Positions 29,960 through 50,085 of a stretch of DNA of 58,554 nucleotides are shown here, piece after piece. Source of the stretch: an uncultured bacterium (GTDB taxonomy: Bacteria > Nitrospirota > Thermodesulfovibrionia > UBA6902); contig CBFDEG010000001.1 of assembly GCA_965603765.1 (NCBI GenBank), positions 1 through 58,554 on the forward strand, read 5' to 3'. Under the pieces are notes generated by a model. The model did no database searches. It was not told where the DNA came from and saw nothing but the letters and a program-made list of their open reading frames with translations. The position numbers and the translations under genes are program-made. The first letter of the stretch is position 1, and each line of letters begins with the position of its first letter.

Positions 29960-30210
29960 GGAAATTTTTTTTTATCATTCAGTGTATACCTGTCACCTGA
30001 TCAGGGAGTTTTATTCCCATAGAGAAAATAATTCCTGCCCTTGTGTCATGTTATTGACGCAGTCAATATTCCCCGACAAGCTAAAAACATTTAAAATCAA
30101 TATGTTGAGTTCTGGCATTTGATTTGCATTGTAAACATTATGTTTTTTAAAAGAGTAGAAAAGATTGATGAGTCAATCAATTGGCATCTGCTGCTAAAAA
30201 TGAGGGGAGT

Positions 30211-31248
30211 ATGAAACATATGGACATTCAGACATTAATGAAACCAATTGACATTTTACTTGTTGAGGACAGACTGGCAGACACGCGGTTGTTCAGGGAA
30301 ACCCTTGTTGATACCGATGCGTATCATTTTGAGTTGACATGCGCTGAAAACATCGGGGAAGCGAGCGAACACCTTTCCGGGAAAGAGTTTGATGTTGTTC
30401 TGCTTGATATATCAATGTCCGATCATACAGGGTTCGAGACCTTTGTGAACCTCAGGATGCTTGCTCTCAGGGTACCGATAATACTCCTGTCGAGCGTGCA
30501 TGATGAAGATCTTGCAATAAAGGCCCTCCAGAACGGCGCGCAGGATTACCTTATAAAAGGGCAGTTCAGCAGCTCTGTGCTTGGCCGTTCCATACGGTAT
30601 GCAATTGAGCGTCACAGAATAATGTCCGATCTGGAGCGTGCCAGAAAAAGGGAATATCGTCTTGCGTACTTTGATTATCTCACAAATCTGCCGAATCGAC
30701 AGCTTTTTTATGACCGTATGAACCAGTTTATTACGCATGCCCAGAGGTATAAACAGAAGATAGCGCTTATGTTCATTGACCTTGACGGTTTCAAGAATGT
30801 TAATGATACTATGGGGCATGGAACAGGGGATCTTATGCTCAAGGCAGTTGCCGGACGTTTGAAGGATTGCCTGCGCAAGTCAGACACTGTTGCGCGCATG
30901 GGCGGCGATGAGTTCACCTGCATCCTTCCAAAGATAAAGGGCAGAGACGATATCAGTATTGTGGCAAAGAAGATAAACAACGCACTTGCCAGGCCGTTTG
31001 AACTGAAGGGCCATAACATATATATATCCTGCAGTATTGGTATAAGCGTATTTCCGGATAATTCCAGTGAGATGCACGGGCTGATAAAAGAAGCGGACAT
31101 CGCCATGTACCACGCAAAACGGCAGGGAAAGAACAATTTCCGTTTTTATTCAAAAAGCATGACATTTATCAGCCATGAGCATATGGTCCCTCACAATAAC
31201 ATGTTGAGGACCATAGACCACAGGAAGGTAATGTTCGATTTCAGATAG
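30211..31248 (+). CDS. Response-regulator receiver + GGDEF diguanylate cyclase
   Basis: REC motifs: LLVEDRLAD, LLDISMSD, LLSS, K in YLIKG. GGDEF motifs: RMGGDEF with an RKSD I-site 5 residues upstream. GAGGGGAG Shine-Dalgarno before ATG 30211. Confidence 0.9.
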   Translation: MKHMDIQTLMKPIDILLVEDRLADTRLFRETLVDTDAYHFELTCAENIGEASEHLSGKEFDVVLLDISMSDHTGFETFVNLRMLALRVPIILLSSVHDEDLAIKALQNGAQDYLIKGQFSSSVLGRSIRYAIERHRIMSDLERARKREYRLAYFDYLTNLPNRQLFYDRMNQFITHAQRYKQKIALMFIDLDGFKNVNDTMGHGTGDLMLKAVAGRLKDCLRKSDTVARMGGDEFTCILPKIKGRDDISIVAKKINNALARPFELKGHNIYISCSIGISVFPDNSSEMHGLIKEADIAMYHAKRQGKNNFRFYSKSMTFISHEHMVPHNNMLRTIDHRKVMFDFR

Positions 31249-32769: not shown

Positions 32770-32795
32770 ATGTATTGCAAAGGGAGGTGACTGAA

Positions 32796-33038
32796 ATGTC
32801 CAAAACCATCACATTAAGAATAAAAGACGAGGTATATGAACTGTTCCGCACACTTGCAGAAAATGATAACCGTACGCTTTCTAATTTTATAGAGACAGCT
32901 GCCCTGCGCCATATTGAAGAAAATGAGTTTGCTGATGAATATGAAATGGCCGAGATAAGGGACAATAGGGAACTGAACAGAAGCCTGAAACAGGCACTCA
33001 AAGATGCAAAGGCAGGACGGGGACAGTTTGTTGAGTGA
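32796..33038 (+). CDS. Ribbon-helix-helix antitoxin (CopG/RelB/ParD-like)
   Basis: MSKTITLRIKDEVYELFRTLAENDNRTLSNFIETAALRHI. AGGGAGGTGA Shine-Dalgarno at 32781-32790. Confidence 0.8.
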   Translation: MSKTITLRIKDEVYELFRTLAENDNRTLSNFIETAALRHIEENEFADEYEMAEIRDNRELNRSLKQALKDAKAGRGQFVE

Positions 33039-33312
33039 TTATAGAATATTTGAAACTGAAGAATTTACGAAAAAACTCGTCAAGATTGATGCACGGGATT
33101 CACAATTCATAAAAGAGAAACTCCGTAAATACGTATATCCCCAGATTCGAAAAGAACCGCGTTTCGGTAAAAATATAAAAAAGCTCAGAGGGTATGAGCC
33201 TGATACCTGGCGTTACCGAATCGGGAAGTTCAGGGTGTTCTATACAATAGAGAATGATAAGGCGGTTATTCTTATGCTGACGCTGGATCACAGGAAAGAT
33301 GCTTATGGATAG
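33031..33312 (+). CDS. Type II toxin, RelE/ParE superfamily
   Basis: YRIFETEEFTKKL...WRYRIGKFRVFYTIENDKAVILMLTLDHRKDAY. A TTG start (33028 or 33031) overlaps the antitoxin stop. Confidence 0.82.
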   Translation: MSDYRIFETEEFTKKLVKIDARDSQFIKEKLRKYVYPQIRKEPRFGKNIKKLRGYEPDTWRYRIGKFRVFYTIENDKAVILMLTLDHRKDAYG

Positions 33313-33349
33313 GCAAGGAAAAAGTAGAATTTGGTGTTTTATTAACGAC

Positions 33350-33643
33350 TTATGATCTTTTTTTCCAGTAACCGGGCCTGCGGCGTAGATGTGCCACTGC
33401 GGTGACAATAATTTGTTCCGGTTCGATATAGTATAGAATAGCAAACGGAAACCTGCGGACAAGACGTCTTCTTAACTTTCCTTCAATTACAGGCCATGTT
33501 TTTGGAGATAGTGCGACTGAGTTTACAGCTCCTTCTACTTCTGAGAGATAGTCATAACCCAAACCGGTAGCCTGAGTTTCATAATACTTGGCGGCTTCAT
33601 ACATTTCCTCTTCTGCAGCAGGAAAAAATTTAACATGCTTCAT
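33350..33643 (-). CDS. Type II toxin, ParE/RelE superfamily
   Basis: MKHVKFFPAAEEEMYEAAKYYE...RRFPFAILYYIEPEQIIVTAVAHLRRRPGYW. 4-nt ATGA overlap with the upstream antitoxin. Confidence 0.8.
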   Translation of the reverse strand: MKHVKFFPAAEEEMYEAAKYYETQATGLGYDYLSEVEGAVNSVALSPKTWPVIEGKLRRRLVRRFPFAILYYIEPEQIIVTAVAHLRRRPGYWKKRS

Positions 33644-33870
33644 TTAAGCCTGGAACGGGTATCTTTAAATACCTGCTCTGACGGCTTTGTTTTTACCTTT
33701 CCATCTTTGTACTCCTGATACCGGGCTTCTGCTTCCGCAACCCATAATCTTTCTGCATCAGGGTCTTCCTCATTATCAAGGCTTTTCAGTAAATTTTCTG
33801 CTAGTTGTGCCCTTTCAGTAGAGGACAGCTGCATGGCTTCTTTCTTTATTTCTTCAATTTTAAGCGGCAT
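33640..33870 (-). CDS. Addiction-module antitoxin (putative addiction module component family)
   Basis: EAMQLSSTERAQLAENLLKSLD...DAERLWVAEAEARYQEYKDG. GGAGG Shine-Dalgarno at 33876-33880 (minus strand). Confidence 0.8.
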   Translation of the reverse strand: MPLKIEEIKKEAMQLSSTERAQLAENLLKSLDNEEDPDAERLWVAEAEARYQEYKDGKVKTKPSEQVFKDTRSRLK

Positions 33871-35092: not shown

Positions 35093-35120
35093 AAAAAAGG
35101 GCGGGTTTGAAACCCGCCCC
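35093..35120 (-). terminator. Rho-independent terminator closing the NuoEFG-like operon
   Basis: On the minus strand GGGGCGGGTTTCAAACCCGCCC is followed by TTTTTT, about 45 nt after the stop at 35166. Confidence 0.85.
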
Positions 35121-35165
35121 TACGTTACTTTCACGCTTACTAACTTACCCGCTGTCCCGCTAACC

Positions 35166-37619
35166 TCACATCTTCTCTAATTTAACAGCAACTATCGGTG
35201 ATTCGCCTTCTGATGATATGCTTGTGAGCGTATTTATCTTTGCGAACGGGAAGTGGGTCGGCACGAACACTGTTCCGTCAGGCAGTTCTGATGCGACCTT
35301 TGCCTTCAAAAATACCGAGCCCTGTTTAGAGGTTATCTTTACATGACTGTCATCCTCTATGCCGTTATTTTTAGCGTCCTCTTCACTTATCTCAAGCAAT
35401 GCTTCCGAGACAACCAGGTCGAGGGACTTGGAGCTTGTGGACATGCTTCCAGAGTGCTGGACAACATCCCTTATTACGAGTTTGAACGGATATGCGCTGT
35501 CAGCCTCATCACCGGTTCTGTATTCAACCGGGTTGAATGCCTTTGTGCCTGAGGATTCCTCTGCGGGCAGGGCCTTTATTTCTTCCTGAACAGCCGCAAG
35601 GTTTCTTACGCCTGTGTCCTCTCCCATTGCGAGCGCGAGGTTTCTGAGTATCATCCAGTCAGCAACCGATTGTCCGGTCGGGTCAGAGAGTTTATGCACC
35701 TTCTGAGTTCTGCCTTCAGCGCTTGTGAATGTACCGCTCTTTTCACCCCAGCTTGAGGCGGGCAGTACAACGTTTGCAAGCTTTGCTGTATCTGTCATAA
35801 AGATGTCCTGGACAACGAGGAAATCAAGTGATTTAAGCTTCTCGATGACCTTTTTGCTGTCAGGGTATGTTGTTGCAGGGTCTTCACCCATTACATAGAG
35901 CATGCTTAACGGCATGTTCTCATTGTAGAGCATCTCCAATACACCCTTGTCCTCAGGTTCGTTAAGCGGCCTTATGCCCATTTTATAATGTCCAAAAGTG
36001 TTTGAGAATTCAGCCGGTATCTGGAGCGCCTCAGGCCCGTCACCCAGAAGGTTGACAAGGTTTGCCGCGGCAAGGACCGTGTCCATGCCTTTTGTGTTCT
36101 CAGAGACACTGACCGAAAGCGATATCATTCTGCTCTTTGCATTGCCAAGCGCTTCTGCGGCGTACACAATGTCAGCTTCAGGAATGCCTGTGATGGCGGA
36201 CACTTTGTCGGCAGTGTAGTTTTCGAGCGAGCTTTCAAGTGCCGCAAGATCTTTGATCTTTGATGCGGCATCTTTGTCATAAAGACCTTTGTCGATTATT
36301 ATCTTCATGAGGCCGTTTATAAGTGCTACGCTTGTGCCGTCATTTATGCTGAGCCATTTTGAGCTGTGCCTTGTCAGTTTTGACTCTCTTGAATCAGCCA
36401 CCAGAAGTTCGCTCCCCTCTCTTTTTGCCTGGAGCATGTTAAGCCCGAAAACAGGATGGGTAACGCTGGGGTCTGACTCGAGGACGAGAATGACGTCCTT
36501 GCCTATCGGGGATTGGAGGTCTATCTTATGGTTTTTCTGACCGAAAGATCTTTCCCACGCCTTTTGTACCTTTGTATATCCGAACTCAGCGGACGATCCA
36601 ATATTGTTGGTGCCGATTATCTTCCGCATGAATTTCTGGAGAAGATAGTTGTCTTCATTTGTACACCTCGGGGAGCCTATTGCGCCGACTGTATCCGGTT
36701 TGGCTGTTTTGAGGACGGCTTTTATATTATTCGAGATATAGTCGAGTGCATCGTCCCATGATACTTCATTGAACTCATCACCTTCTTTTATCAAAGGATT
36801 CTTGAGGCGTTTGGCGCTGTATATGTAGTCAATGCCGAACCTGCCTCTTCCGCAGAGGTTTCCGTCACTGACACCGACACCTTCTTTACCGCTTGCCCTG
36901 AGGATCTTTCCTTCCCTCATTCCAAGAGTAAGGGTACAGCCTACACCGCAGAACGGACAGGTTGTGTCCTGGTCTTCTATGAACCATGAGCGTGCGGTGA
37001 ATTTGTAAGGCTTGCTGAGAATAGCGCCCGTAGGACATACGTCAAGACATTGTCCGCAGTAATCACATTCGAGTATTTCGCCGAATGCAGGCTGAACAAC
37101 TGTATCGAATCCTCTGCCTATAAGGCCGAGCGCCGCTTTCCCCTGGTGTTCTGCACAGATCCGGACACATTTACCGCAGAGAATGCAGCGTCTTGAAGTG
37201 AGCTCTATCAGCGGGCCACGAACATCTGATGCAGCCTCTTTTCGATGCCTTAGAAATCTTCCTTCGGGTTTGCCGTATTCATAGGCCAGATCCTGGAGGT
37301 CGCATTCGCCTGCCTTGTCGCACTCCGGGCAATCGAGCGGGTGATGGATCAGCATAAGCTCGATTACTGTCTGGCGAAGCTTTCGTAGTTTTGGAGTTTC
37401 TGTGATGACTTCCATTCCTTCCTGTGCAGGCGCTGAACATGCCGCGAAAAGCCTTGGCTGGTCCTTGACCTCAACCAGGCAGAGCCTGCATCCTCCGTAT
37501 GGCCTCAGCCTCTTGTCAGCACACAGGTTCGGTATATATATTTTATTTCTTAACGCAACAGAGAGGATCGTATCTCCGGTTTCCGCAGTGACTTCTTTTC
37601 CGTTGATTATCAGCTTCAT
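35166..37619 (-). CDS. NuoG/Nqo3-like Fe-S subunit with a molybdopterin-oxidoreductase-fold domain (no obvious active-site Cys/Sec)
   Basis: N-terminal 2Fe-2S (C..GGCRLC). His/Cys cluster HHPLDCPECDKAGEC. CILCGKCVRIC and CDYCGQCLDVCP. MopB 4Fe-4S CPFCGVGC. The segment IGTNNIGSSAEFGYTKV sits where formate dehydrogenases carry C/U-H. Confidence 0.85.
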   Translation of the reverse strand: MKLIINGKEVTAETGDTILSVALRNKIYIPNLCADKRLRPYGGCRLCLVEVKDQPRLFAACSAPAQEGMEVITETPKLRKLRQTVIELMLIHHPLDCPECDKAGECDLQDLAYEYGKPEGRFLRHRKEAASDVRGPLIELTSRRCILCGKCVRICAEHQGKAALGLIGRGFDTVVQPAFGEILECDYCGQCLDVCPTGAILSKPYKFTARSWFIEDQDTTCPFCGVGCTLTLGMREGKILRASGKEGVGVSDGNLCGRGRFGIDYIYSAKRLKNPLIKEGDEFNEVSWDDALDYISNNIKAVLKTAKPDTVGAIGSPRCTNEDNYLLQKFMRKIIGTNNIGSSAEFGYTKVQKAWERSFGQKNHKIDLQSPIGKDVILVLESDPSVTHPVFGLNMLQAKREGSELLVADSRESKLTRHSSKWLSINDGTSVALINGLMKIIIDKGLYDKDAASKIKDLAALESSLENYTADKVSAITGIPEADIVYAAEALGNAKSRMISLSVSVSENTKGMDTVLAAANLVNLLGDGPEALQIPAEFSNTFGHYKMGIRPLNEPEDKGVLEMLYNENMPLSMLYVMGEDPATTYPDSKKVIEKLKSLDFLVVQDIFMTDTAKLANVVLPASSWGEKSGTFTSAEGRTQKVHKLSDPTGQSVADWMILRNLALAMGEDTGVRNLAAVQEEIKALPAEESSGTKAFNPVEYRTGDEADSAYPFKLVIRDVVQHSGSMSTSSKSLDLVVSEALLEISEEDAKNNGIEDDSHVKITSKQGSVFLKAKVASELPDGTVFVPTHFPFAKINTLTSISSEGESPIVAVKLEKM

Positions 37620-39466
37620 TATTTCGTCACCTCCTGATCCTGTTCAGCAGGTTCCGGCTCTTTAAGGGAAGCATTTATTTCTATTGCACCGAACGGGCAG
37701 GCATCATAACATGTCCTGCATTGTACGCATAGCTCCTGTATTACCCTGTGGGGCTGTTTCTTTTCTCCCACAATGGCTTTTGAAGGACAACCCCTTAAAC
37801 AGAGGCCGCATCCCTTGCATTTTTCCGCGTTTATATCGAATGAGCATAGTGTGCTGCATATTCCGGCCTTGCACCAGCGCTCGTTGATGTGGGATTCATA
37901 TTCATGCCTGAAGTATTTGATTGTTGTAAGTACCGGGTTCGGAGCTGTCTGTCCCAGACCGCAGAGAGATGTTGCTATAATGTCTTTGCTGAGATCAAGA
38001 AGGGTCTCTATGTCTCCCTCTTTTCCCCGGCCGGCACAGATATCGGTCAGCATATCGAGCATGACCTTTGTACCGACCCTGCAGGGTGTACATTTTCCGC
38101 AGGACTCTTCAGCTGTGAACTCAAGAAAGAATTTCGCGGTGCTTACCATGCATGTATCTTCGTCCATGACAACCATACCGCCGGACCCTACAATTGCGCC
38201 GGTCTTGTTAATGTCTTCATACGTAACCGGGATGTCTAACAGCTCTTCAGGGATACAGCCTCCTGACGGGCCTCCGAGCTGGACTGCCTTGAATTTCTTC
38301 TTTTTCTTGTTTATGCCGCCTCCGATGTCATAAATAATCGATCTCAGCGGTATGCCCATCGGCACTTCAACAAGGCCGACGTTTTTAATGTCTCCTGTAA
38401 GCGCGAATACTTTTGTGCCCGCGCTCTTTTCTGTGCCTAATGTCCTGTACCATTCGGCCCCGCCTAAGATAATAGGGGCTATCTGTGCCAGTGATTCGAC
38501 ATTATTCAGAACGGACGGTTTGTCCCAAAGTCCTTTGTGGGCAGGGAAGGGAGGTCTCGGTCTCGGCATGCCGCGCTGTCCCTCAATGGAACGCATAAGA
38601 GCGGTCTCTTCACCGCAGACGAATGCCCCGGCTCCGAGATATATCTCAAGATCAAAATCAAAACCGCTGTCAAGGATGTTCTCTCCCAGAAGTCCGGCGT
38701 CACGGCATTTTTCTATTGCCATCTGGAGACGTTCAACAGCAAGCGGATATTCCGCTCTGACATAAATGACGCCTTTGCTCGAGCCGATCGCCTTTGCACC
38801 GATAATCATTCCCTCGATTACGGAATGGGGGTCAGCTTCCATGACCGACCTGTCCATGAATGCACCGGGATCACCTTCGTCACCATTGCAGAGCATGTAT
38901 TTCTGGTCCGCGACCGATTTAGAGGCGAATTCCCATTTAAGACCTGTCGGGAAACCCGCTCCGCCTCGTCCTCTCAGGCCTGAGTCTTTCATTACCTGGA
39001 TAATATCTTCAGACGTCATTTCAGTCAGCGCCTTTGCTGTGGCTGAATATCCGTCTCTTGCGATGTATTCTTCGAGGCTTTCAGGGTCTATCATGCCTTT
39101 GTTCCTTAATACCCTGAGCACCTGGTGTTTAAAAAATGGTATGTCATTCATTAAAGGAATGGCACTTTTATTCTCGGCGTCCTTAAACATTAATTTCTCA
39201 TACGGACGGCCCTTTAGAAAATGCTCTTCAACGAGCTTTGGTATTTCTTCAACAGTGAGTTTCTGATAGAAGATCTCTTCGGGGTATACAAGCATGACAG
39301 GACCCTCGGCGCAAAAACCGTTGCAACCTGTAAGTACGATCTTGATCTCATCCGCGAGCCCCTGTTTTTCGAGCTCAGCCTGCAAGGCGTCTTTTACCTT
39401 GGGGGTCCCGGTTGCAACACATCCGGTACCGGCGCACATCAATAAATTGGCACGATATTTTTCCAT
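37619..39466 (-). CDS. NuoF/HydB-like NAD(P)H-FMN subunit with an extra N-terminal [2Fe-2S] and C-terminal 2x[4Fe-4S]
   Basis: CAGTGC...GCNGFC. GRGGAGFPTG. GAGAFVCGEETAL. SCGKCTPCR. CKGCGLCLRGCP and CVQCRTCYDACP. Its stop overlaps the next start (TAATG). Confidence 0.9.
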   Translation of the reverse strand: MEKYRANLLMCAGTGCVATGTPKVKDALQAELEKQGLADEIKIVLTGCNGFCAEGPVMLVYPEEIFYQKLTVEEIPKLVEEHFLKGRPYEKLMFKDAENKSAIPLMNDIPFFKHQVLRVLRNKGMIDPESLEEYIARDGYSATAKALTEMTSEDIIQVMKDSGLRGRGGAGFPTGLKWEFASKSVADQKYMLCNGDEGDPGAFMDRSVMEADPHSVIEGMIIGAKAIGSSKGVIYVRAEYPLAVERLQMAIEKCRDAGLLGENILDSGFDFDLEIYLGAGAFVCGEETALMRSIEGQRGMPRPRPPFPAHKGLWDKPSVLNNVESLAQIAPIILGGAEWYRTLGTEKSAGTKVFALTGDIKNVGLVEVPMGIPLRSIIYDIGGGINKKKKKFKAVQLGGPSGGCIPEELLDIPVTYEDINKTGAIVGSGGMVVMDEDTCMVSTAKFFLEFTAEESCGKCTPCRVGTKVMLDMLTDICAGRGKEGDIETLLDLSKDIIATSLCGLGQTAPNPVLTTIKYFRHEYESHINERWCKAGICSTLCSFDINAEKCKGCGLCLRGCPSKAIVGEKKQPHRVIQELCVQCRTCYDACPFGAIEINASLKEPEPAEQDQEVTK

Positions 39467-39512: not shown

Positions 39513-39896
39513 TTAATATGTTGTTTCACTGCCGATAACAAGCGCGTATTTTTCAACGGGCTTGCCGCCCATAACATGCTCTTTGAATATCTCGCGTATC
39601 TTGTCGGCTGTAAGTTCGCCGTATTTTACAGGGGGCTGGTTCACTATTTCGACTGTCACCATCGGCTCCCGGGCACAAAAACCCGCGCATCCTGATGTTG
39701 TTGTTATCACGTCTTCGACCTTTGACAGTTCTATCTCTTCCATAAGCGCGGTCATGATGTTTCTTGCGCCTGCGGCGATACCGCATGTGCCCATATGGAC
39801 AGTGACCTTTGCCCTGTTGCCGCCTTCTCTGAGAGCAAATGTGGCGTGCTGTTTTTCTTTTATTTTTTTAAGATCAGCGATCGTTATTCTTGTCAT
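39513..39896 (-). CDS. Small thioredoxin-like [2Fe-2S] ferredoxin-domain protein (HydD-like)
   Basis: VHMGTCGIAAG ... SGCAGFCAREP. Only three Cys in 127 aa. Confidence 0.75.
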   Translation of the reverse strand: MTRITIADLKKIKEKQHATFALREGGNRAKVTVHMGTCGIAAGARNIMTALMEEIELSKVEDVITTTSGCAGFCAREPMVTVEIVNQPPVKYGELTADKIREIFKEHVMGGKPVEKYALVIGSETTY

Positions 39897-39981: not shown

Positions 39982-40854
39982 TTATCTATATTCATTCAGT
40001 ATTTCTGTTATCTTTTTCGGTGTGACCGCGCCGTATGTCTCCTCATCTACAACCACAACGGGCGCGAGCCCGCAAGCTCCGAGACAGCGTACTACTTCAA
40101 TAGAGAATTTTTTGTCTTCAGTCACATCTCCGACATCTATCTTGAGTTCTTCCTTTATCTTGTTGAGGGATTCTTCGACCCTCTTAACATAACAGGCGGT
40201 ACCCAGGCAGACCCTTATATTATGGTCGCCTCTCGGTTTCATGGTGAAAAAGGAATAAAATGAGACTATGCTGTGTATCTCGGCAGGCGAGAGGTTAAGC
40301 CCTTTGGCAACGCGCTTCTGCACTATTGGAGGCAGGTATCCGACTATTTGCTGACACCGCTGTAATACAGGGATCGAACTGCCGGGTTTGTCCTTGTACT
40401 TTTTTATGACCCTGTCCATCTCCTCGATCATTGAGGGAGGGAACTCGTCTTCCTTGGGTTTTGTTTCAACTGAAGCTTGTTTGTTCAGCCATTCGACAGC
40501 CCTCAGGGTGACATCTGTAAGCACCGCAGGGGTGAAAGGCTTCGGCACATAATCAATTATGCCGAGTTCAAGTGCTTCTTTTATTGTTTCCTGTGAAGGA
40601 TAGCCGGTCAGTATGACTATTCCGATATCAGGTCTTTTCTGTCTCAGCCATCTGATGAGCGTTATGCCGTCCATCTCGGGCATATTAAGGTCGGTGAGCA
40701 CAAGGTTGTAGCTGTTCTGCTCCATCTTAAGGATGGCCTCTTTTCCGCTTGAGGCGCTTTCTATCTCATATCCTTCAGACTTGAGGACCATTTCAACACT
40801 GCGGATAATGACTTTTTCATCATCTACAACAAGGATCTTGATATTATCAGGCAT
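39982..40854 (-). CDS. Fusion of a response-regulator receiver domain with a NuoE/HydC-type [2Fe-2S] subunit
   Basis: REC motifs: ILVVDDEK, LTDLNMPEMDG, VILTGY, VPKPF. NuoE motifs: CLGTACYVKR and CLGACGLAPVVVVD. Confidence 0.85.
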   Translation of the reverse strand: MPDNIKILVVDDEKVIIRSVEMVLKSEGYEIESASSGKEAILKMEQNSYNLVLTDLNMPEMDGITLIRWLRQKRPDIGIVILTGYPSQETIKEALELGIIDYVPKPFTPAVLTDVTLRAVEWLNKQASVETKPKEDEFPPSMIEEMDRVIKKYKDKPGSSIPVLQRCQQIVGYLPPIVQKRVAKGLNLSPAEIHSIVSFYSFFTMKPRGDHNIRVCLGTACYVKRVEESLNKIKEELKIDVGDVTEDKKFSIEVVRCLGACGLAPVVVVDEETYGAVTPKKITEILNEYR

Positions 40855-40963: not shown

Positions 40964-41737
40964 TTAAACGGTTTCCAGAGGAAACACTCTTGCAAGCCAT
41001 AGCAGCCAGCCTTCAGACAGGTGGTCTTTCAGCAGCGCGGCCATAACATCATTGGCCCTGGTGTTGATCTCTCTCAGGTCTGCGGTCATCGGTGAAAGCA
41101 GGTCATTGCTCTGACCTGTGCTTGAATAAATACTTGCAAAGGGTTTTCCTGCTTCGAATTTATCAAGGCCTTTAATAAAGTCCACATATGTGAGGGCGCC
41201 GGAAAGTATCCAGTACCTGAGATCACAACCTACTTCCCAAAGGCCGTCCTTTGCCGGGCGCGCCCATGTTCCTTCTTTATAGAAAATGATGGGGTTGTCC
41301 TGCTCCCGCAATGAGACAACTGAATCCCGGAATTCATCGATAAATGCCTGCCTCAGTATCCATCCCCTTTTGTCAAAGACCTTTTTGGCGACATTGAGCA
41401 TGAAGTCAGGGGTGAAGGGTTTTTCGAGATACTGCCGTGCTCCGAGCCTTGAAGCCTCTTTAGCATCTTCAAGCCGGGGGTATCCTGTAATTATTACAAC
41501 ATCGGTCTGTGGCTTGGCGATACGCGCTTCTTTCAGAACTTCCATGCCGCTTATGTCAGGCAGCATCACGTCAGATATGAAAAGGTCGAAGTCCTCTTTT
41601 ACCAGCTTGTTGAGGGCCGCTTCTCCTTTGTCGACAGTTGAAATGCTGTAACCTTCTGCTCCGAGTATTCTCTTGCAGCTTAATGTTACAACAGGGTCAT
41701 CATCAAGTATTAAAATCCTGCCTTTTTTCTCCATCAA
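40964..41737 (-). CDS. Receiver domain fused to a glycine-cleavage-H-like domain without the lipoyl lysine
   Basis: REC motifs: ILILDDDP, FISDVMLPDISG, VIITGY, LEKPF. C-terminal half: GLWEVGCD...LTYVDF...GKPFASIYSSTGQSNDLLSPMTADLREIN...SEGWLLWL. Confidence 0.7.
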   Translation of the reverse strand: MMEKKGRILILDDDPVVTLSCKRILGAEGYSISTVDKGEAALNKLVKEDFDLFISDVMLPDISGMEVLKEARIAKPQTDVVIITGYPRLEDAKEASRLGARQYLEKPFTPDFMLNVAKKVFDKRGWILRQAFIDEFRDSVVSLREQDNPIIFYKEGTWARPAKDGLWEVGCDLRYWILSGALTYVDFIKGLDKFEAGKPFASIYSSTGQSNDLLSPMTADLREINTRANDVMAALLKDHLSEGWLLWLARVFPLETV

Positions 41738-41837: not shown

Positions 41838-42398
41838 TTATTCTATCATATTATCTGTACTATTTAACCATGCACTTATATCGTTCTTAATAATTTTTAT
41901 CACGTCCGGTTCGTTAATCGGGATGCCGTCGAGGTCTTTTTTGAGCTCTGCGGTATCGAGTGAATATTTTTTGTCATTTCTAATGTGCTCAAACAGGAAA
42001 TCTATCTCCGGATTGGACATGATGAGAATTATCATTGTCTGGGTAATGTCTCCGAGAGGTTTCCGGTCAATATGGTCATGCTGGAAGGATGCTTTTATGG
42101 ACGTGCCCTTGCCTTTTTCTGAATTTACAGTGATATTCCCGTTACATTCTCTTGCTGATTGAGCAAGCAGAGGGATGCCGAGTCCGACTTTGCGCGTGGT
42201 CCTTGTGGTGTAAAAAGGATTGCAGGCATTTTCGAGCAGTTCCTTATCCATGCCTTTGCCGTTGTCGCTTATCTCCAGTGTCAGCAGGTTTGCCGCAGTA
42301 TCCTCGACGATCGTTATATCTACCCTGTCCGCCTCAGCGGTTATGCAGTTCTCGGCAATGTCGAGTATATGTAATGACAGGTCTTCCATTACTCCCAC
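41838..42398 (-). CDS. Stand-alone GHKL/HATPase_c-type ATP-binding protein (no His-phosphotransfer domain)
   Basis: N-box HILDIAENCI, G1 ISDNGKGM, G2 GLGIPLL. 186 aa. Overlaps the PHP gene by 10 nt. Confidence 0.75.
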   Translation of the reverse strand: MGVMEDLSLHILDIAENCITAEADRVDITIVEDTAANLLTLEISDNGKGMDKELLENACNPFYTTRTTRKVGLGIPLLAQSARECNGNITVNSEKGKGTSIKASFQHDHIDRKPLGDITQTMIILIMSNPEIDFLFEHIRNDKKYSLDTAELKKDLDGIPINEPDVIKIIKNDISAWLNSTDNMIE

Positions 42399-43132
42399 AC
42401 CACTTTTCGTCCGTCAATATTCTTAAATGCCAATGAAATTTCCTTTATTGTCGGCTCGTTCATTATGAAACTTGTTGTTCTTTTTCCTATATCCTCAGGA
42501 TGGTGCGCGTCAGATGATGATATCCATGGGAATGAGCTGTACATATTGAATTTCTCTTCTGCGCCTTTTCTGTCTGTGTGAGGGGAGAATTCCAGGGCAT
42601 TAAATTTCATGTCATCAGATATAAAACCGAGCTGGGAGATTATGCTGAAGGCGTCCTTGTCAATATGAGAGGCCATGGCAAGCCCTCCCAAAGAATGAAT
42701 ATTATCAATAACTTCCTGCGCAGAGAGCATTGTCGCACCGATCAATAAACGTTTATTGAAATCCATGACCTCATCATTTTCATTTACAACGATCTGCTCC
42801 CCGAACATCTTTTCGTCATTTTCACCCGGCAGTAAATTATTATAGATAATATCCTGTAATTTGATGACAGCTTCCGTGTCATCAAAAAGCGCAAGGATGT
42901 GAGCTTCCTCAGCGGAACATATCTCCATTCCCGCAAGCACGGTCAGCTTTTTATCTGAAGCGGCCTTTTGTGCTGCGATTATGTTTTCTGCTGAATTATG
43001 GTCAGTTACCGCTATTATGTCAAGGTGTCGTTCGGATGCGGCATTTACAACAGCAAGGGGGGACATTTCGAGTTCAGCGCACGGGGAGAGACAGGTGTGG
43101 ATGTGCAGGTCAGCCCTGAATTCTTTCAGCAT
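42389..43132 (-). CDS. PHP-domain phosphoesterase
   Basis: ADLHIHTCLSPCA, VTDHNS, ASHID, SSSDAHH metal-binding motifs. Confidence 0.8.
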   Translation of the reverse strand: MLKEFRADLHIHTCLSPCAELEMSPLAVVNAASERHLDIIAVTDHNSAENIIAAQKAASDKKLTVLAGMEICSAEEAHILALFDDTEAVIKLQDIIYNNLLPGENDEKMFGEQIVVNENDEVMDFNKRLLIGATMLSAQEVIDNIHSLGGLAMASHIDKDAFSIISQLGFISDDMKFNALEFSPHTDRKGAEEKFNMYSSFPWISSSDAHHPEDIGKRTTSFIMNEPTIKEISLAFKNIDGRKVVWE

Positions 43133-43178: not shown

Positions 43179-43206
43179 TAAAAAAAGGCACCCACAAGAG
43201 GTGCCC
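43179..43206 (-). terminator. Rho-independent terminator after the Zn-ribbon gene
   Basis: On the minus strand GGGGCACC-TCTTGTG-GGTGCC is followed by TTTTTTT. It carries the GTAGGGG cap of the REP family. Confidence 0.6.
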
Positions 43207-43249
43207 CTACGATATTCATAATTCGTAATTATTAATTATTAATTGCCGT

Positions 43250-43537
43250 TTACCCCGGCAGTTTATAGTCCGCGCCTGCAAACTGTATGTTTGCCTGATT
43301 GTCACTGCGCGGTGGTGACACTGCGTGTACTCCTCCGCATGAAGGGCATTTGTCCACAAATGTTTTCAGGGTAAAGCTCTCTCCGCATCCCTGACATTTT
43401 GTGTCGAGTCCGTTATTTGGTACGGGCGTGTCCTTTATTGCTCCGCCGTGTGCCTGATAGACAAAATCTACGAGTTCTTTACCTTCGGCATAAGGGCCTC
43501 CGCCGCCACTGCCGCAACCGCATCCACATCCTCCCAT
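43250..43537 (-). CDS. Small zinc-ribbon protein with an N-terminal (Cys-Gly)n tract
   Basis: MGGCGCGCGSGGGG.... CQGCG...CPSCGG (CxxC-x18-CxxC). Strong AAGGAGG Shine-Dalgarno 7 nt upstream of ATG 43537. Confidence 0.65.
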   Translation of the reverse strand: MGGCGCGCGSGGGGPYAEGKELVDFVYQAHGGAIKDTPVPNNGLDTKCQGCGESFTLKTFVDKCPSCGGVHAVSPPRSDNQANIQFAGADYKLPG

Positions 43538-45336: not shown

Positions 45337-46683
45337 TTATTTGTGAAGAATAAAATAAAAGTTGTTGCCGTGTTCTGTTGCTTCATAACCGACTATTCCG
45401 CCATGTATCTCAACTGCATTTTTTATAAATGCCAGACCCTGGCCTGTGCCCGGCTGGGTTTCAACATTTGATCCCCGGAACTTTTCTTTAAAAATATCTT
45501 CACGTTCATTCTCGGGAATATGGGGCCCGGTGCTGAATACATTGAATTTGACCCCGTCCTTGTCATGCCCGAAAAAGTCTTTTATGACCTCATGCCCGTA
45601 GGATATATATTTTTTCTTCTCCCCGTTTGCAAGAGAGACTTCCCGTGTGTATTTCAGTGTATTGGAGAAAAGGTTTGCATATACCTGCGCTATAAGGCCT
45701 ACATCAACGACGGTTAAGACCTCAGCATCAGGGATGCCGCTTAAACGGTCGTCTGTTGATATGCCGGCATTACTGAGCCTCTCGATATATCTGTCAAGCT
45801 GGGGCAGGACAACATCGTTTTTCATGTTGCATGTCTTTGTCCGGAGTGTCAGCCGTCCCTGGTCAAAATGGCTTTTCCTGAAGAGTGTTTCGATAAAGAG
45901 GCTCATGTTCTTATAATGTTTTTCTATGTTCTCAAGCTCTGTGTTCAGTCCCAGGTTTATGTCGGCAAGCTCTTTTATGAACTCCTGCATGCAGACCGCA
46001 TCACATGAACCTGCAGAGGCCTTACTGATGAAATCCTTTTCAAGTTCGGTGTTTTTTTCAATTCTTCTTTTGAGGCCCCTTAAAAAGAGCTTATACACCA
46101 TGTTGGGGACTATTATGTTGTGTTCTATGTCAGCGACAAGCGAGCGGATGAATCTGAGGTGCTCGATGTTCTTTCTTACGAGAAACCTGTTATGAATATT
46201 GAAGCCGATACGGTTTGCATATTTCTGGAAAAAGAACTCAGCGTGCTGCCCGAGGTTATCAGCAGGGTATATCTCCAGCAGTCCCAGAACATTGTCATGT
46301 ACTTCAAAGGGCAGTTCTTCAATAAGAGGACCTTTGCCCCGGATAGTCAATGCAATGCTGTTACGTTTCGTATAAAAAGGTTTGTAAGAGGGTTTCAGAT
46401 CCTGCGGTGGCGGCGTGCTCAGCTTGAGATCCTGTTCCTCTGTTCTTGATACGAGAGACATATTGTTTGTTGCCGGGTCTACACTATAAAGGCGGGCATC
46501 CCGGTCAAAATAGATCTTTGGTATAACCACACAGAGATTGTAAAAGTCCTGTATGCTGTCGACCTCCTGCGCAAGGTCAAAAAAGGTCTTCAGCGCGTCA
46601 TTTTCATTGCGGGCGAAATCATATTTTTCGTAATCAGCTTTTTTACGATTTGCTCTTTCATATATATAATTCATGCTGCTCAT
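45337..46683 (-). CDS. Soluble sensor histidine kinase (GAF-like N-domain + HisKA-like + HATPase_c)
   Basis: H-box-like LVADIEHNIIVP. N-box ANLFSNTLKYT. G-boxes GTGQGLAFIKNAVEIHGG. No hydrophobic segments. Confidence 0.75.
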   Translation of the reverse strand: MSSMNYIYERANRKKADYEKYDFARNENDALKTFFDLAQEVDSIQDFYNLCVVIPKIYFDRDARLYSVDPATNNMSLVSRTEEQDLKLSTPPPQDLKPSYKPFYTKRNSIALTIRGKGPLIEELPFEVHDNVLGLLEIYPADNLGQHAEFFFQKYANRIGFNIHNRFLVRKNIEHLRFIRSLVADIEHNIIVPNMVYKLFLRGLKRRIEKNTELEKDFISKASAGSCDAVCMQEFIKELADINLGLNTELENIEKHYKNMSLFIETLFRKSHFDQGRLTLRTKTCNMKNDVVLPQLDRYIERLSNAGISTDDRLSGIPDAEVLTVVDVGLIAQVYANLFSNTLKYTREVSLANGEKKKYISYGHEVIKDFFGHDKDGVKFNVFSTGPHIPENEREDIFKEKFRGSNVETQPGTGQGLAFIKNAVEIHGGIVGYEATEHGNNFYFILHK

Positions 46684-47118: not shown

Positions 47119-48498
47119 TTAAGTTGAGCCGGCAATAGAGAATTTTTCAGAAATATACCTGTGTATGCTTTTTGCCGCCCGTTTTCCTGCGCCCATTGCG
47201 CTTATTACTGTTGCTGCTCCGGTTGATATATCGCCTCCTGCAAAGATGCCGGGAATATTTGTGCTGTTGTCAGGTGCTGTTTTTATATATCCGCCTCCCC
47301 ATAGCCTCAGACCTTTTATAGATTCTACTAACAGGGGATTTGAGGCCTGTCCGATAGCAACTATTACCTGGTCAACATCAATGATGAATTCGTCCCCTGA
47401 ACGCTCCGGCCTTCTCCTGCCGGATCCATCCGGTTTTCCGAGGATCATTTTGTCGCATTTCATTGCCTTTACATATCCTCTTTCATCTCCGATTATTTCT
47501 GTGGGGTTTGAAAGGAAACTGAATTCGATGCCTTCTTCCTTTGCGTGGTGCAGTTCTTCAAGCCTTGTCGGCATCTCTGCCTCAGTTCGTCTGTATACAA
47601 TATAGACCTTCTCTGCTCCCAGCCTGAGTGCGGTCCTTGCCGCGTCCATGGCGACATTGCCGCCTCCTATTACCGCTGACCTGCGGGCTTTTTTTACGGG
47701 AGTAGCGTAGTCAGGGAACTGTTCGGCCTTCATAAGGTTTACCCTTGTGAGAAATTCCGAGGCAAAATAAACATTGTTCAGATTTTCACCGGGGATGTCC
47801 ATATACCTTGGTGTCCCGGCTCCTACTCCTATGAATACTGCTTTAAAGCCGTCTTCGAAGAGTTCATCGATTGTCTGGGTCCTGCCGACAACCCAGTTGA
47901 GCTGTATTTTCACACCAAGGCTTTTGATATAATCTATCTCTCTGTTGATTATTTTCTTGGGGAGCCTGAACTCAGGTATCCCGTAACCCAGGACACCGCC
48001 AGCCTCATGAAGGGCTTCAAAGACCGTTACATCATATCCGAGCCTTGCAAGCTCCGCGGCGGTGGTGAGTCCTGCCGGACCTGAACCTATGACAGCCACT
48101 TTGTGGCCGTTTAGTTTTTTAGAGGGTATTTTTTTTGAACTGTTTTGTTGTGCATTATGATCGGCCGCGAAACGTTCGAGAGCCCCTATGGAAATGGCCT
48201 GCTTTTTTTTGCCGAGAAGACAGCCGCCCTGGCATTGCCTTTCCTGAGGGCATACTCTGCCGCATATGGCAGGCAGCATGTTGTATTGCCTCACAACATC
48301 AAGTGCTGCTTCAAAGTCACTGTTTTTTATGGCGGATATAAAACCGGGTATGTCTATCTCAACAGGGCACCCCTTTACACAGCCAGGGTTTTTGCATTGA
48401 AGGCATCTTGAGGCCTCCTTTATTGCCTGTTTTTCAGTCAGGCCGAGGGAAACTTCTTTAAAGTCTTTTGCTCTTTTTTTCGGGTCTCTTGTTCTCAT
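47119..48498 (-). CDS. GltD-family NADPH-dependent FAD/FeS oxidoreductase (NfnB/SudA-like)
   Basis: CLQCKNPGCVKGCP, CGRVCP. Two Rossmann motifs, VAVIGSGPAG and SAVIGGGNVAMD. GIFAGGD. Confidence 0.88.
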   Translation of the reverse strand: MRTRDPKKRAKDFKEVSLGLTEKQAIKEASRCLQCKNPGCVKGCPVEIDIPGFISAIKNSDFEAALDVVRQYNMLPAICGRVCPQERQCQGGCLLGKKKQAISIGALERFAADHNAQQNSSKKIPSKKLNGHKVAVIGSGPAGLTTAAELARLGYDVTVFEALHEAGGVLGYGIPEFRLPKKIINREIDYIKSLGVKIQLNWVVGRTQTIDELFEDGFKAVFIGVGAGTPRYMDIPGENLNNVYFASEFLTRVNLMKAEQFPDYATPVKKARRSAVIGGGNVAMDAARTALRLGAEKVYIVYRRTEAEMPTRLEELHHAKEEGIEFSFLSNPTEIIGDERGYVKAMKCDKMILGKPDGSGRRRPERSGDEFIIDVDQVIVAIGQASNPLLVESIKGLRLWGGGYIKTAPDNSTNIPGIFAGGDISTGAATVISAMGAGKRAAKSIHRYISEKFSIAGST

Positions 48499-48535
48499 CT
48501 TATTTAATAATGCAGGGGCACGGCGCGCCTTGACC

Positions 48536-49381
48536 CTACTTTTTACAGTTTCCTTTGCATTTTTTCTTTTTGAATGCCTTCATTGACTCTGCTTCTTCTT
48601 CCTTGTAAAAACCGAGCCTGTCAGCAAGCTCATGGAAGTCAACTTCATGCCCGTCAAATTCGGGCCCTTCAATACAGGCAAATTTTGTTTTGCCCGCGAT
48701 CTTCACCCTGCAGGCGCCGCACATGCCGGTGCCCTCCACCATTACAGGGTTGAGGCTTACAAGAGTTTTAATTTCATAAGGTTTTGTTGTTTCGGCAACT
48801 GCCTGCATCATCCTTATCGGGCCTACTGCTATTACTATTTTGACCTTTGAACTCTCTATGATGTCTTTAAGTTCTTCTGTAACAAGGCCTTTTCTGCCGG
48901 CGCTTCCGTCATCTGTTGTCAGCAGCACTTCATCAGCGTATTGTTCAAATCGGTCTTTCCAGACTATCAGCTCTTTTGACCGTGCCCCGAGTATCACGCT
49001 CACCCTGTTCTTTTTTGCCTTAAGGGCCTTTAGTATCGGAAAGAGTGTTGCTGACCCTATTCCCCCGGCCACAAGAACACAATGTCCGTATTTTTTTATC
49101 GGAGTTGCGTGGCCCAGCGGACCTGCAATGTCCCTGATGATGTCACCTTTGTTGAGCAGGCCCATTTCATGGGTTGTCCTGCCGATTTTCTGGTAGAGCA
49201 GGGTAATAGTGCCCTTTTCATAGTCGGAGTCAGCTATTGTAAGCGGTATGCGCTCACCTTTTTCATGCAGTCTCAATACAACAAAATTCCCCGCTTTGTG
49301 GTGGCGTGCTATGTATGGGGCGCTCACCTGCATTACTTCAACTTCGGGAGCTATTATCTCTTTATTAAGTATTTCGTACAT
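48536..49381 (-). CDS. Ferredoxin-NADP reductase-like FAD/[2Fe-2S] subunit (NfnA/SudB-like)
   Basis: MYEILNKE...; RIPLTIAD; VAGGIGSA; C-terminal CGACRV...CIEGPEF. Start set at ATG 49381. The longer ORF to 49462 overlaps comF. Confidence 0.85.
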   Translation of the reverse strand: MYEILNKEIIAPEVEVMQVSAPYIARHHKAGNFVVLRLHEKGERIPLTIADSDYEKGTITLLYQKIGRTTHEMGLLNKGDIIRDIAGPLGHATPIKKYGHCVLVAGGIGSATLFPILKALKAKKNRVSVILGARSKELIVWKDRFEQYADEVLLTTDDGSAGRKGLVTEELKDIIESSKVKIVIAVGPIRMMQAVAETTKPYEIKTLVSLNPVMVEGTGMCGACRVKIAGKTKFACIEGPEFDGHEVDFHELADRLGFYKEEEAESMKAFKKKKCKGNCKK

Positions 49382-49386
49382 AATGT

Positions 49387-50085
49387 TTAATCTCTTATCC
49401 CGTATGCAAGGGCAGCTACAATGACCTCTTTTGCCCCTGCGCGTTTTAGTTCTTTTGAACATTCCCGGACAGTTGCTCCGGTTGTTATCACATCATCTAT
49501 CACTAAAACGTTTTTATCTTTTATCAATTTATTGCTCAGTATTTTAAATGCGTTCCTGATGTTCTTTTTCCGGTCAACGGAATTCAGCCCTACCTGCGGT
49601 GCTGTGTCTTTGATCTTGACCAGGGTGTTGATGGCCAGGCAGGCGTTCATGCCTTTTGCAACGTGGCCGGCAAGCAGGGCAGACTGGTTGAAGCCCCTCT
49701 GTCTGAGCCGTTTTTTATAAAGCGGAACAGGTATGACCGTGTCAATCCGGGGAGCCTTGACCCGCAGTATTATATCAGATAATGGTTTTGAAAGTCTTTT
49801 AACATTCTGGTATTTATATAGATTTATGGCTGTTCTAAGTACGCTGTCATACAAGCCGAAGCTTGAAGCCCTTTTAAACGCAGGTTTTTCCCTGATACAG
49901 TCAGCGCAGGTCGTGCTTCTTTCTGAAATAAAAGGTTTGCCGCATGTCAGGCAGACTGCGCCGTTATACTGACTTATAGAATCCCAGCAGTCACTGCATA
50001 TAGGCGCTGTTTCGCGGTCCGGGGACATATTGCTGCATACCGGGCATTTTTGAGGGAAAAGAGTGTTTAATAACCTGTTAAGCAT
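49387..50085 (-). CDS. comF: ComF-family phosphoribosyltransferase-domain protein
   Basis: N-terminal double CxxC zinc finger (CPVC...CSDC...CLTCG...CADC). PRTase motif VLVIDDVITTGAT. Confidence 0.85.
   Translation of the reverse strand: MLNRLLNTLFPQKCPVCSNMSPDRETAPICSDCWDSISQYNGAVCLTCGKPFISERSTTCADCIREKPAFKRASSFGLYDSVLRTAINLYKYQNVKRLSKPLSDIILRVKAPRIDTVIPVPLYKKRLRQRGFNQSALLAGHVAKGMNACLAINTLVKIKDTAPQVGLNSVDRKKNIRNAFKILSNKLIKDKNVLVIDDVITTGATVRECSKELKRAGAKEVIVAALAYGIRD

Follow-up and report, generated by a model that had tools for sequence, protein, structure and literature searches.

A receiver domain fused to a NuoE-type subunit

The stretch of DNA analysed here, called the window throughout, comprises positions 1 to 58,554 (58,554 nucleotides, nt) of contig CBFDEG010000001.1 (assembly GCA_965603765.1) from an uncultured bacterium of the Nitrospirota. 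Its subject is a gene at 39982..40854 whose 290 amino acid (aa) product, REC-NuoE, joins a CheY-like receiver (REC) domain to a [2Fe-2S] subunit of the NuoE/HydC/HndA type, i.e. the type called BfuC in the Bfu family of flavoprotein enzymes, so that the product may equally be called REC-BfuC. The interval given in the original prediction, which was made from the letters of the sequence, is exact and the strand is corrected to minus; plus-strand translation of 39982-40854 yields many stops, while the minus strand holds one unbroken frame of 290 codons with an ATG start and an AGGAGG ribosome-binding site 8 nt upstream. The assignment is carried by this open reading frame (ORF), by matches to both Pfam domains and by more than 120 database clusters of the same architecture.

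The receiver spans residues 1-126 (40477..40854, minus). Pfam Response_reg matches residues 7-114 (E 9.4e-31; 106.7 bits, cutoff 30.2), and all of the motifs that had been quoted as a full phospho-acceptor pocket within about the first 120 residues are present, namely VVDDE (D11, D12), LTDLNMP (D55), VILTGY (T83) and VPKPF (K105), together with an aromatic switch residue, Y102, three positions ahead of K105. The domain thus has the fold, acidic pocket, acceptor Asp, Thr, Lys and aromatic switch of the receiver family (PF00072), and its nearest solved relatives are NtrC1-type receivers (1ny5, 1zy2), which share its long alpha5 (residues 109-126). It is predicted to be phosphorylation-competent.

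The NuoE/HydC module occupies residues 140-290 (39985..40437, minus) and is complete, as had been proposed for the C-terminal half: Pfam 2Fe-2S_thioredx aligns residues 147-290 with profile positions 2-145 of 145 (E 7.9e-48; 162.4 bits, cutoff 24.8), and both cluster motifs are in place, CLGTAC (C216, C221) and CLGACG (C257, C261). A helical bundle followed by a thioredoxin-like domain with C-x4-C ... C-x3-C places it in the NuoE/HydC/BfuC family (PF01257). The nearest NCBIfam models to this half are HoxE, NuoE and the gamma subunit of formate dehydrogenase (FDH), with scores below every equivalog cutoff of these models, and in comparison with solved structures it is clearly more remote from complex I NuoE than from the C subunits of bifurcating hydrogenases (7t2r_C at 3.6e-40, then 8a6t_C, 7q4v_C and 7p5h_C).

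An AlphaFold2 model, for which 58 homologues served as input, divides the protein into a (beta-alpha)5 receiver (1-126), a linker (127-139), a four-helix bundle (140-199, with helices at 140-153, 160-171, 176-185 and 190-199) and a thioredoxin-like domain (211-289) that carries the four cluster cysteines. Receiver strands are modelled at 6-10, 30-34, 51-55, 78-83 and 101-104 and helices at 14-26, 37-46, 63-73, 88-96 and 109-126, with a block-mean predicted local distance difference test (pLDDT) score of about 88-93 over residues 11-80 and of 68-80 over residues 81-120. The linker (40438..40476, minus) is disordered, with pLDDT below 50 at residues 128-136, and is also the least conserved part of the protein (mean conservation 0.69, compared with 0.84 for the receiver and 0.87 for the NuoE half, over 119 homologues). 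It runs into an invariant P139-P140-x-M142 motif; across 58 orthologues Y102 is invariant, as are P139, P140, M142 and E145.

The original prediction had named a frameshift or an assembly artefact joining two genes as the way in which the fusion could be spurious. The frame is unbroken throughout the linker (about 40438-40476), the linker motif is conserved, and a search of JGI, ENA, NCBI and Logan assemblies recovered at least 120 clusters with this architecture; the best 120 all hold both Pfam domains within 269-312 aa at 73-100 % identity to the query. A copy with 99 % identity lies on a different contig. Because at least 120 independent clusters share both domains in about 290 aa, and the same join recurs in 35 species genomes, a frameshift or chimeric join is ruled out for all practical purposes and the fusion is genuine. 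The 35 species-level loci (one genome per GTDB species) each encode a full-length REC-NuoE relative at 45-86 % identity, and the carriers are nearly all Nitrospirota, i.e. Thermodesulfovibrionales, Candidatus Sulfobium and Dissulfurispiraceae. The record of one close relative (L001) is labelled 'Deferribacteres bacterium', its whole operon is 71-88 % identical to that of the window and the other close relatives are labelled Nitrospirae or Nitrospirota; this metagenome-assembled genome is probably mislabelled. The combination of receiver and NuoE is already visible in databases, where members of the fusion family carry labels such as 'response regulator', 'NAD(P)H-dependent oxidoreductase subunit E' and 'HndA'. 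NuoE subunits had been taken to be usually unfused; NuoE domains are joined to other partners more often than was assumed.

A second possible refutation, the lack of a conserved acceptor Asp in orthologues, is likewise not borne out: D55 and the rest of the pocket (D11, D12, T83 and K105), together with C216, C221, C257 and C261, are invariant in 119 close homologues (73-100 % identity), a pattern which indicates that the receiver chemistry is under strong purifying selection. Further afield, the four cluster cysteines are kept in 12/12 divergent lineages and the receiver catalytic residues with the Thr/Tyr switch pair in 10 of the 12. In several of these lineages the receiver is as close to the query as the NuoE half, or closer (receiver identity 38-57 %), which argues that the fusion is old and was kept while the catalytic partner changed. 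Three other lineages, with receiver identities of 23-25 %, may be independent fusions.

The divergent fusions lie in operons of more than one kind. The fusion P0129 (locus L082), 38 % identical to the query, represents an independent lineage and is encoded behind a Cache-HAMP-HisKA kinase, an NtrC-type regulator and a REC-REC protein. NuoF and a HydA-like subunit of 588 aa are encoded after it, and the locus yielded no sigma54 element. A true [FeFe] HydABC operon has P0205 (L088) for its C subunit, with both Fe_hyd_lg_C and Fe_hyd_SSU domains in HydA, and P0125 (L086) stands with a REC-GcvH-like gene and a HydS-like sensory hydrogenase cassette. The contigs of P0155, P0191, P0146 and P0171 are too short to inform on neighbours. 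Two metagenome proteins, P0121 (578 aa) and P0122 (501 aa), are tandem forms in which a receiver and a truncated NuoE devoid of the Cys motifs precede a second REC-NuoE unit; this second unit retains the Cys motifs in P0121, and P0122 is truncated in both units. They may have arisen by gene duplication and fusion, or may be degenerate regulatory copies.

The operon and its flavoprotein complex

REC-NuoE is the fourth gene of a seven-gene unit on the minus strand, which in order of transcription encodes a PHP-domain phosphoesterase, a HATPase-only protein, a REC-GcvH-like regulator, REC-NuoE, a small [2Fe-2S] ferredoxin, BfuB and BfuA. The 5' boundary is set by the strong intrinsic terminator of the upstream gene (43184..43208, minus; a 10-bp stem, then a T run) and the 3' boundary by another strong intrinsic terminator 45 nt past the BfuA stop (35097..35121, minus; an 11-bp stem with 7 GC pairs, then a T run). 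The upstream terminator is 51 nt from the start of the PHP gene, for which no obvious ribosome-binding site was seen, and the best sigma70-like promoter match of the region (42995-43023, minus; TTGACA-17-CATAAT, 11/12) falls within the PHP coding sequence, approximately 110 nt past its start.

BfuB (37619..39466, minus) is a 615-aa NuoF of the HydB type, with Pfam matches to an N-terminal [2Fe-2S] domain, a flavin mononucleotide (FMN)/NADH core and a C-terminal 2x[4Fe-4S] domain, and its residues 3-595 align with the HydB chains of bifurcating enzymes (7t2r_B at 1.8e-247, then 7q4v_B and 8a6t_B). The N-terminal [2Fe-2S] and C-terminal 2x[4Fe-4S] domains are what set BfuB/HydB apart from complex I NuoF (PMC9304861), and every Bfu enzyme needs a BfuC with a C1 cluster (PMC9304861). 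By domains and alignment, the products encoded here have the features of both BfuB and BfuC as defined for the family (PMC9304861), which for BfuB also include an N3-like [4Fe-4S] cluster domain and for BfuC a single [2Fe-2S] cluster.

The only other candidate for the C subunit is the small thioredoxin-like [2Fe-2S] ferredoxin (39513..39896, minus; 127 aa; Pfam 2Fe-2S_thioredx 3e-05, NCBIfam 2Fe-2S ferredoxin 1.5e-10). It matches the C-terminal half of the NuoE profile only and is without the helical bundle, and the ORF list and Pfam reveal no other full-length NuoE gene in the operon; REC-NuoE is therefore the only possible BfuC subunit, encoded in the same operon 0.5 kb upstream of BfuB, with this synteny kept in 35 loci. 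As it is the sole NuoE/BfuC-type subunit of the flavoprotein operon, any signal at the receiver would reach the enzyme. In nearly all loci the small ferredoxin gene lies between NuoE and NuoF, which we take to be the HndB position, and the order NuoE, small ferredoxin, NuoF and large subunit, presumably that of hndABCD, is also kept in relatives without a receiver.

The large subunit, BfuA (35166..37619, minus; 817 aa), is NuoG/FdhA-like, with Pfam matches to Fe-S domains and a molybdopterin-type domain, and has lost the FDH catalytic residues. Its nearest solved relatives are the alpha subunits of NAD-dependent FDHs (9wxb_B at 1.6e-118, 6tg9_A at 4.8e-116), and it falls below the NCBIfam cutoffs both for Fdh-alpha (TIGR01591, 444 vs 666 bits) and for the NuoG equivalog (440 vs 470 bits). 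In alignment with FdsA, SAEFGYT stands in place of the Mo-ligand motif CARVCHS, and all fusion-carrying loci have A-x-[FL]-G-Y at this position. The Arg motif PLRGQNNVQG has likewise become IPAE[FYH]SNT[FYLM]G, conserved across the REC-linked loci (IPAEFSNTFG in the window), whereas comparators without a receiver keep CARL-Sec-HS (L042, L076) or CARLCHS (L063). An active formate dehydrogenase is ruled out by the loss of Sec/Cys-His and Arg and by the sub-cutoff TIGR01591 score. Among the loci sampled, this pseudo-FDH subunit, at 45 % identity or above, occurs only alongside the receiver fusion. FdhD genes lie 1-2 kb downstream of the operon in L027 and L034 and approximately 85 nt downstream in L035.

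REC-NuoE had been assigned to a flavoprotein complex, and that part of the claim stands, in that it is the only BfuC-type subunit of a flavoprotein operon; a plain complex I or hydrogenase module does not fit. A complex I N-module is ruled out by the extra Bfu-type domains of NuoF, the lack of nuo genes in the window and the sub-cutoff NuoG score, and the operon encodes no additional catalytic subunit. From its domains and alignments the complex is assigned as an NADH/ferredoxin module of the Bfu/Hnd/HydABC type with a catalytically degenerate FDH/NuoG-like large subunit. Complex I is a candidate for its third partner: nuoABCD(EF) genes adjoin the operon in 12 loci in two arrangements, mostly divergent with the kinase between, and directly downstream on the same strand in L016. 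These neighbouring nuo operons have plain nuoE and nuoF genes of their own.

The REC-GcvH-like regulator (40964..41737, minus; 257 aa; Pfam Response_reg 2.5e-25) has an intact receiver and a C-terminal domain whose profile matches GcvH in the PDB at 8.7e-07, and 15/15 orthologues match PF01597; a lipoyl carrier was considered for this domain, which has the GcvH fold by profile, but the position of the lipoyl-Lys is not conserved. No solved sequence relative spanning the entire protein was found. Its gene is the immediate upstream neighbour of REC-NuoE in most orthologous loci. The PHP-domain phosphoesterase (42389..43132, minus; 247 aa; Pfam PHP and PHP_C) and the HATPase_c-only protein (41838..42398, minus; 186 aa; Pfam HATPase_c 9.3e-16, no other domain) overlap by 10 nt, the start of the latter lying within the end of the former, and Pfam finds no DHp/HisKA domain in the HATPase-only protein.

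Two-component linkage and a proposed role for the tethered receiver

In 14 loci within L004-L022 a HAMP-HisKA-HATPase kinase is encoded upstream of the operon, followed in 8 of the 14 by an NtrC-type sigma54 activator and then by REC-GcvH-like, REC-NuoE, small ferredoxin, BfuB and pseudo-FDH genes. In 22/30 loci among L004-L033, a sigma54 -24/-12 element (TGGCAY-N5-TTGCW, with 2 mismatches at most and GG and GC retained) precedes the REC-GcvH-like gene at a distance of 43-109 nt, compared with 2.6 % of 350-nt windows drawn at random from these loci; the element is also present in the divergent locus L086. The receivers of NtrC, REC-GcvH-like and REC-NuoE are 35-42 % identical, have intact pockets and are alike in alpha1 (…SCxRILxAEGY / …SAxRVLxSEGY), which fits a single kinase serving all three without proving it.

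These observations lead to the reading preferred here, that a two-component system controls both the transcription of the operon and, through the tethered receiver, the Bfu complex itself; as judged from sequence and synteny, it has about an even chance of being correct. A dedicated histidine kinase would phosphorylate three related receivers, those of the NtrC-type activator, REC-GcvH-like and REC-BfuC, the donor being the adjoining HAMP-HisKA kinase in sister lineages and an unlinked kinase or acetyl phosphate in this genome. The phosphorylated sigma54 activator would turn the operon on. In REC-BfuC, phosphorylation of D55 would flip the T83/Y102 switch and alter the alpha4-beta5-alpha5 face, as in NtrC1-type receivers, and the altered receiver could then dimerise with a second BfuC or with the REC-GcvH-like protein, or dock on BfuB/BfuA.

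How docking might act on the enzyme is suggested by the HydABC structures, where the complexes are dimers of heterotrimers, the four-helix bundle of HydC is located at the HydB/HydA interface, and the [2Fe-2S] domain of HydC alternates between an 'in' position close to FMN and an 'out' position beside the ferredoxin-branch clusters, a swing that has been proposed as a key gating step (PMC10021017). Because the receiver is anchored to the equivalent four-helix bundle at the BfuB/BfuA interface, its docking may shift the assembly or oligomeric state, or alter the in/out swing of the [2Fe-2S] domain that would gate the ferredoxin branch. Together with the NtrC branch this would amount to a feed-forward design, in which one signal induces the enzyme and then licenses it.

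A more specific form of the proposal takes REC-BfuC, BfuB and the pseudo-FDH as a phospho-switchable electron-input module under coherent feed-forward control, where NtrC/sigma54 induction would be followed by receiver licensing of ferredoxin-coupled (confurcating or bifurcating) flow within seconds. Licensing could proceed by docking of the NuoG-like module on a partner such as complex I, for which it would act as an alternative N-module taking NADH and ferredoxin, or by freeing of the swinging [2Fe-2S] domain. As an input module of complex I it would be akin to the Nuo-Bfu predicted for Nitrospirae (PMC9304861). In this detailed form the proposal is speculative and distinctly improbable. If true, it would be the first direct post-translational two-component control of an electron-bifurcating or respiratory flavoprotein.

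Several points weigh against control of the complex by phosphorylation of the receiver. With as many as 2 mismatches allowed, the window shows no sigma54 element ahead of the PHP, HATPase, REC-GcvH-like or REC-NuoE genes, and neither the window nor its closest relatives (L001-L003) have a DHp-containing kinase, an NtrC regulator or a sigma54 promoter beside the operon. A HATPase-only gene is upstream of REC-GcvH-like instead, with PHP ahead of it in both the window and L001. From these sequences, the type of promoter appears to have changed within the family. Both receivers of the window are thus orphans in this genome, which an unlinked kinase or acetyl phosphate could serve. The HATPase-only protein and PHP are rejected as evidence for a kinase and a phosphatase of the receiver, since there is no DHp domain and the pair is also found at operons without a receiver in other phyla. 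The AlphaFold2 model, with a predicted template modelling (pTM) score of 0.49, gives no fixed contact between the receiver and the NuoE half. D55 is replaced by Tyr in P0126 and by Glu in P0127, two of the divergent lineages, so at least some family members would act without phosphorylation.

Within 10 kb of the operon a single gene is kinase-like, a 448-aa ORF 2 kb upstream (45337-46683, minus), which has a C-terminal HATPase_c domain and, by eye, a possible H-box (…ADIEHNIIVPN…), with no sensor domain in Pfam. It is not supported as cognate kinase, being a separate transcription unit with no Pfam HisKA domain and no synteny in L001-L003.

The PHP and HATPase pair, usually with DRTGG and HATPase_c_2 genes, also accompanies NuoE-Fdx-NuoF operons without a receiver in Thermodesulfobacteriota, Syntrophales, Bacteroidales and Clostridia. 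The cassette (DRTGG, HATPase_c_2, DRTGG-like, PHP and HATPase) lies in full downstream of the operon in L004-L020 and recurs among L004-L022 and at L037-L078, L081 and L086, with a DRTGG-like protein of approximately 113 aa and at times a HydS-like [FeFe] protein. This distribution suggests a general control of Bfu/HydABC enzymes of the kinase/phosphatase type. A search of the literature for DRTGG together with hydrogenase found no paper.

Flow of information in the reverse direction, from enzyme to two-component system, is an unlikely alternative. Here REC-BfuC, perhaps with REC-GcvH-like, would serve as a phosphate sink or sensor that depends on redox conditions: the rate at which its receiver gains phosphate from the shared kinase, or loses it, would vary with the redox or assembly state of the [2Fe-2S] subunit, and this would tune NtrC~P and the transcription of the operon. 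Three receivers of one subfamily behind one kinase form just such a branched architecture, the receiver active site is invariant, and a flexible tether with no fixed output contact suits a competing phospho-acceptor as well as it does a gate. However, both receivers are intact in the clade of the window, where the kinase, NtrC and the sigma54 promoter are unlinked, and a sink needs no covalent fusion to an enzyme subunit, yet the fusion has been retained across several Bfu types.

It is rather less likely again that the receiver is a scaffold independent of phosphorylation, i.e. a constitutive interaction or assembly domain that pairs with REC-GcvH-like or, say, docks BfuABC on complex I. The near-constant presence of the REC-GcvH-like gene as upstream neighbour, the absence of a kinase from the operon of the window, the loss of D55 in P0126 (Tyr) and P0127 (Glu) and the nuo genes adjacent in two arrangements in 12 loci all agree with this; invariance of the five catalytic residues and the Thr/Tyr pair in 119 sequences, and their retention in 10/12 distant lineages, are hard to explain without phosphoryl chemistry. 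A free-standing redox-sensing regulator, with the [2Fe-2S] domain as its sensor or output and no place in the complex, is highly improbable even though some members are named just 'response regulator' and a second small [2Fe-2S] protein is encoded adjacent, given that this ferredoxin has no four-helix bundle and covers half the NuoE profile, that Bfu enzymes all need a BfuC with a C1 cluster (PMC9304861) for which the operon offers no other candidate, that gene order is identical to that of loci without a receiver and that HydC chains align with the NuoE half over its whole length.

Other genes of the window and comparison with known systems

Just upstream of the operon, at 43250-43537 (minus), a 95-aa Cys/Gly-rich protein (MGGCGCGCGSGGGG… plus a zinc-ribbon-like CxxC…CxxC) is encoded by a gene that ends at a strong terminator; its Pfam matches (Zn ribbon, rubredoxin-like, HypA) are all sub-threshold. 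At 47119-49462 (minus) the gene of an NfnB/GltD-like protein (Fer4_20 and Pyr_redox_2, 459 aa) precedes that of an NfnA-like protein (DHODB Fe-S and NAD_binding_1, 308 aa). The pair is probably an NfnAB-type transhydrogenase, which makes it a further candidate for a bifurcating system, only a few kb away from the Bfu operon. A 503-aa protein (52805-54316, minus) combines, unusually, a region like cytochrome bd subunit I (16-199) with a mono-haem cytochrome c (344-410). Also present are two back-to-back type II toxin-antitoxin pairs at 32775-33870 (DUF6290 and ParE on the plus strand, Unstab_antitox and ParE on the minus strand), a REC-GGDEF response regulator (30181-31248, plus) and a RACo-type reductive activator of corrinoid proteins (3845-5338, plus). 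Housekeeping genes elsewhere, i.e. IF-2, TruB, ClpXP, trigger factor, GlmS/GlmU, DnaG and a UvrD-type helicase, are consistent with the window being a chromosomal, Nitrospirota-like segment.

Enzymes of the Bfu/HydABC type set the NADH/ferredoxin balance of anaerobes and have so far been treated as unregulated machines. A conserved receiver on the one subunit proposed to gate the ferredoxin branch through its [2Fe-2S] domain offers a testable handle on post-translational switching of bifurcation, and the finding also marks a widespread Nitrospirota Bfu complex with a dead formate dehydrogenase as its large subunit. No description of a fusion of a receiver with NuoE, HydC or HndA was found in the literature, a search which leaves most subscription journals outside its coverage and whose outcome is not proof of absence. 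The terms 'kinase', 'receiver', 'CheY' and 'PHP' are absent from the Bfu family paper (PMC9304861), kinases appear in a review of multimeric hydrogenases only as glycolytic enzymes, and the passages on HydC in the HydABC structure paper mention no receiver (PMC10021017).

Response regulators are known with outputs other than DNA binding, such as the methylesterase of CheB, the GGDEF domains of PleD and WspR and the HD-GYP domain of RpfG. The receiver of REC-BfuC resembles NtrC1-type receivers (1ny5, 1zy2) in its canonical pocket, Thr/Tyr switch and long alpha5, and sister loci encode an NtrC-type paralogue upstream. In place of a catalytic or DNA-binding domain, it has as its output a redox-cofactor subunit belonging to a multi-subunit electron-transfer complex, for which we know of, and found, no characterised precedent; if the proposed control is real, this would be a new output class for two-component signalling. 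The PHP and HATPase genes of the window belong to the DRTGG/HATPase_c_2/(HydS-like)/PHP/HATPase cassette, of which the window keeps only these two and which occurs independently of the receiver fusion; the cassette is presumably linked to clusters for sensory [FeFe]-hydrogenases (Hfs/HydS).

On the side of the enzyme, complex I NuoEFG and the 'Nuo-Bfu' predicted for Nitrospirae and Planctomycetes (PMC9304861) share with this complex a NuoG-like molybdopterin-type domain without catalytic residues and the proximity of nuo genes seen in 12 loci; the differences are that the present operon is not embedded among nuo genes and its NuoF has the extra Bfu-type cluster domains. FdsABG (6tg9/6tga) and Fdh-Bfu are alike in the order of Fe-S domains, FdsA being the best solved match to BfuA, but in every REC-linked locus Gly takes the place of the Mo-ligand Cys/Sec, Tyr that of the adjacent His and Ala/Glu that of the Arg in PLRGQNNVQG. 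The closest likeness is to BfuC/HydC/HndA of HydABC, NiFe-HydABCSL and Hnd (PMC9304861, PMC10021017), with the same bundle and four-Cys [2Fe-2S] domain, the same domains in the BfuB partner and the same gene order. An N-terminal receiver is absent from every characterised or solved C subunit, and the large subunit here is neither a hydrogenase nor an active FDH; what is new is a Bfu complex that combines a receiver-bearing C subunit with a pseudo-FDH A subunit.

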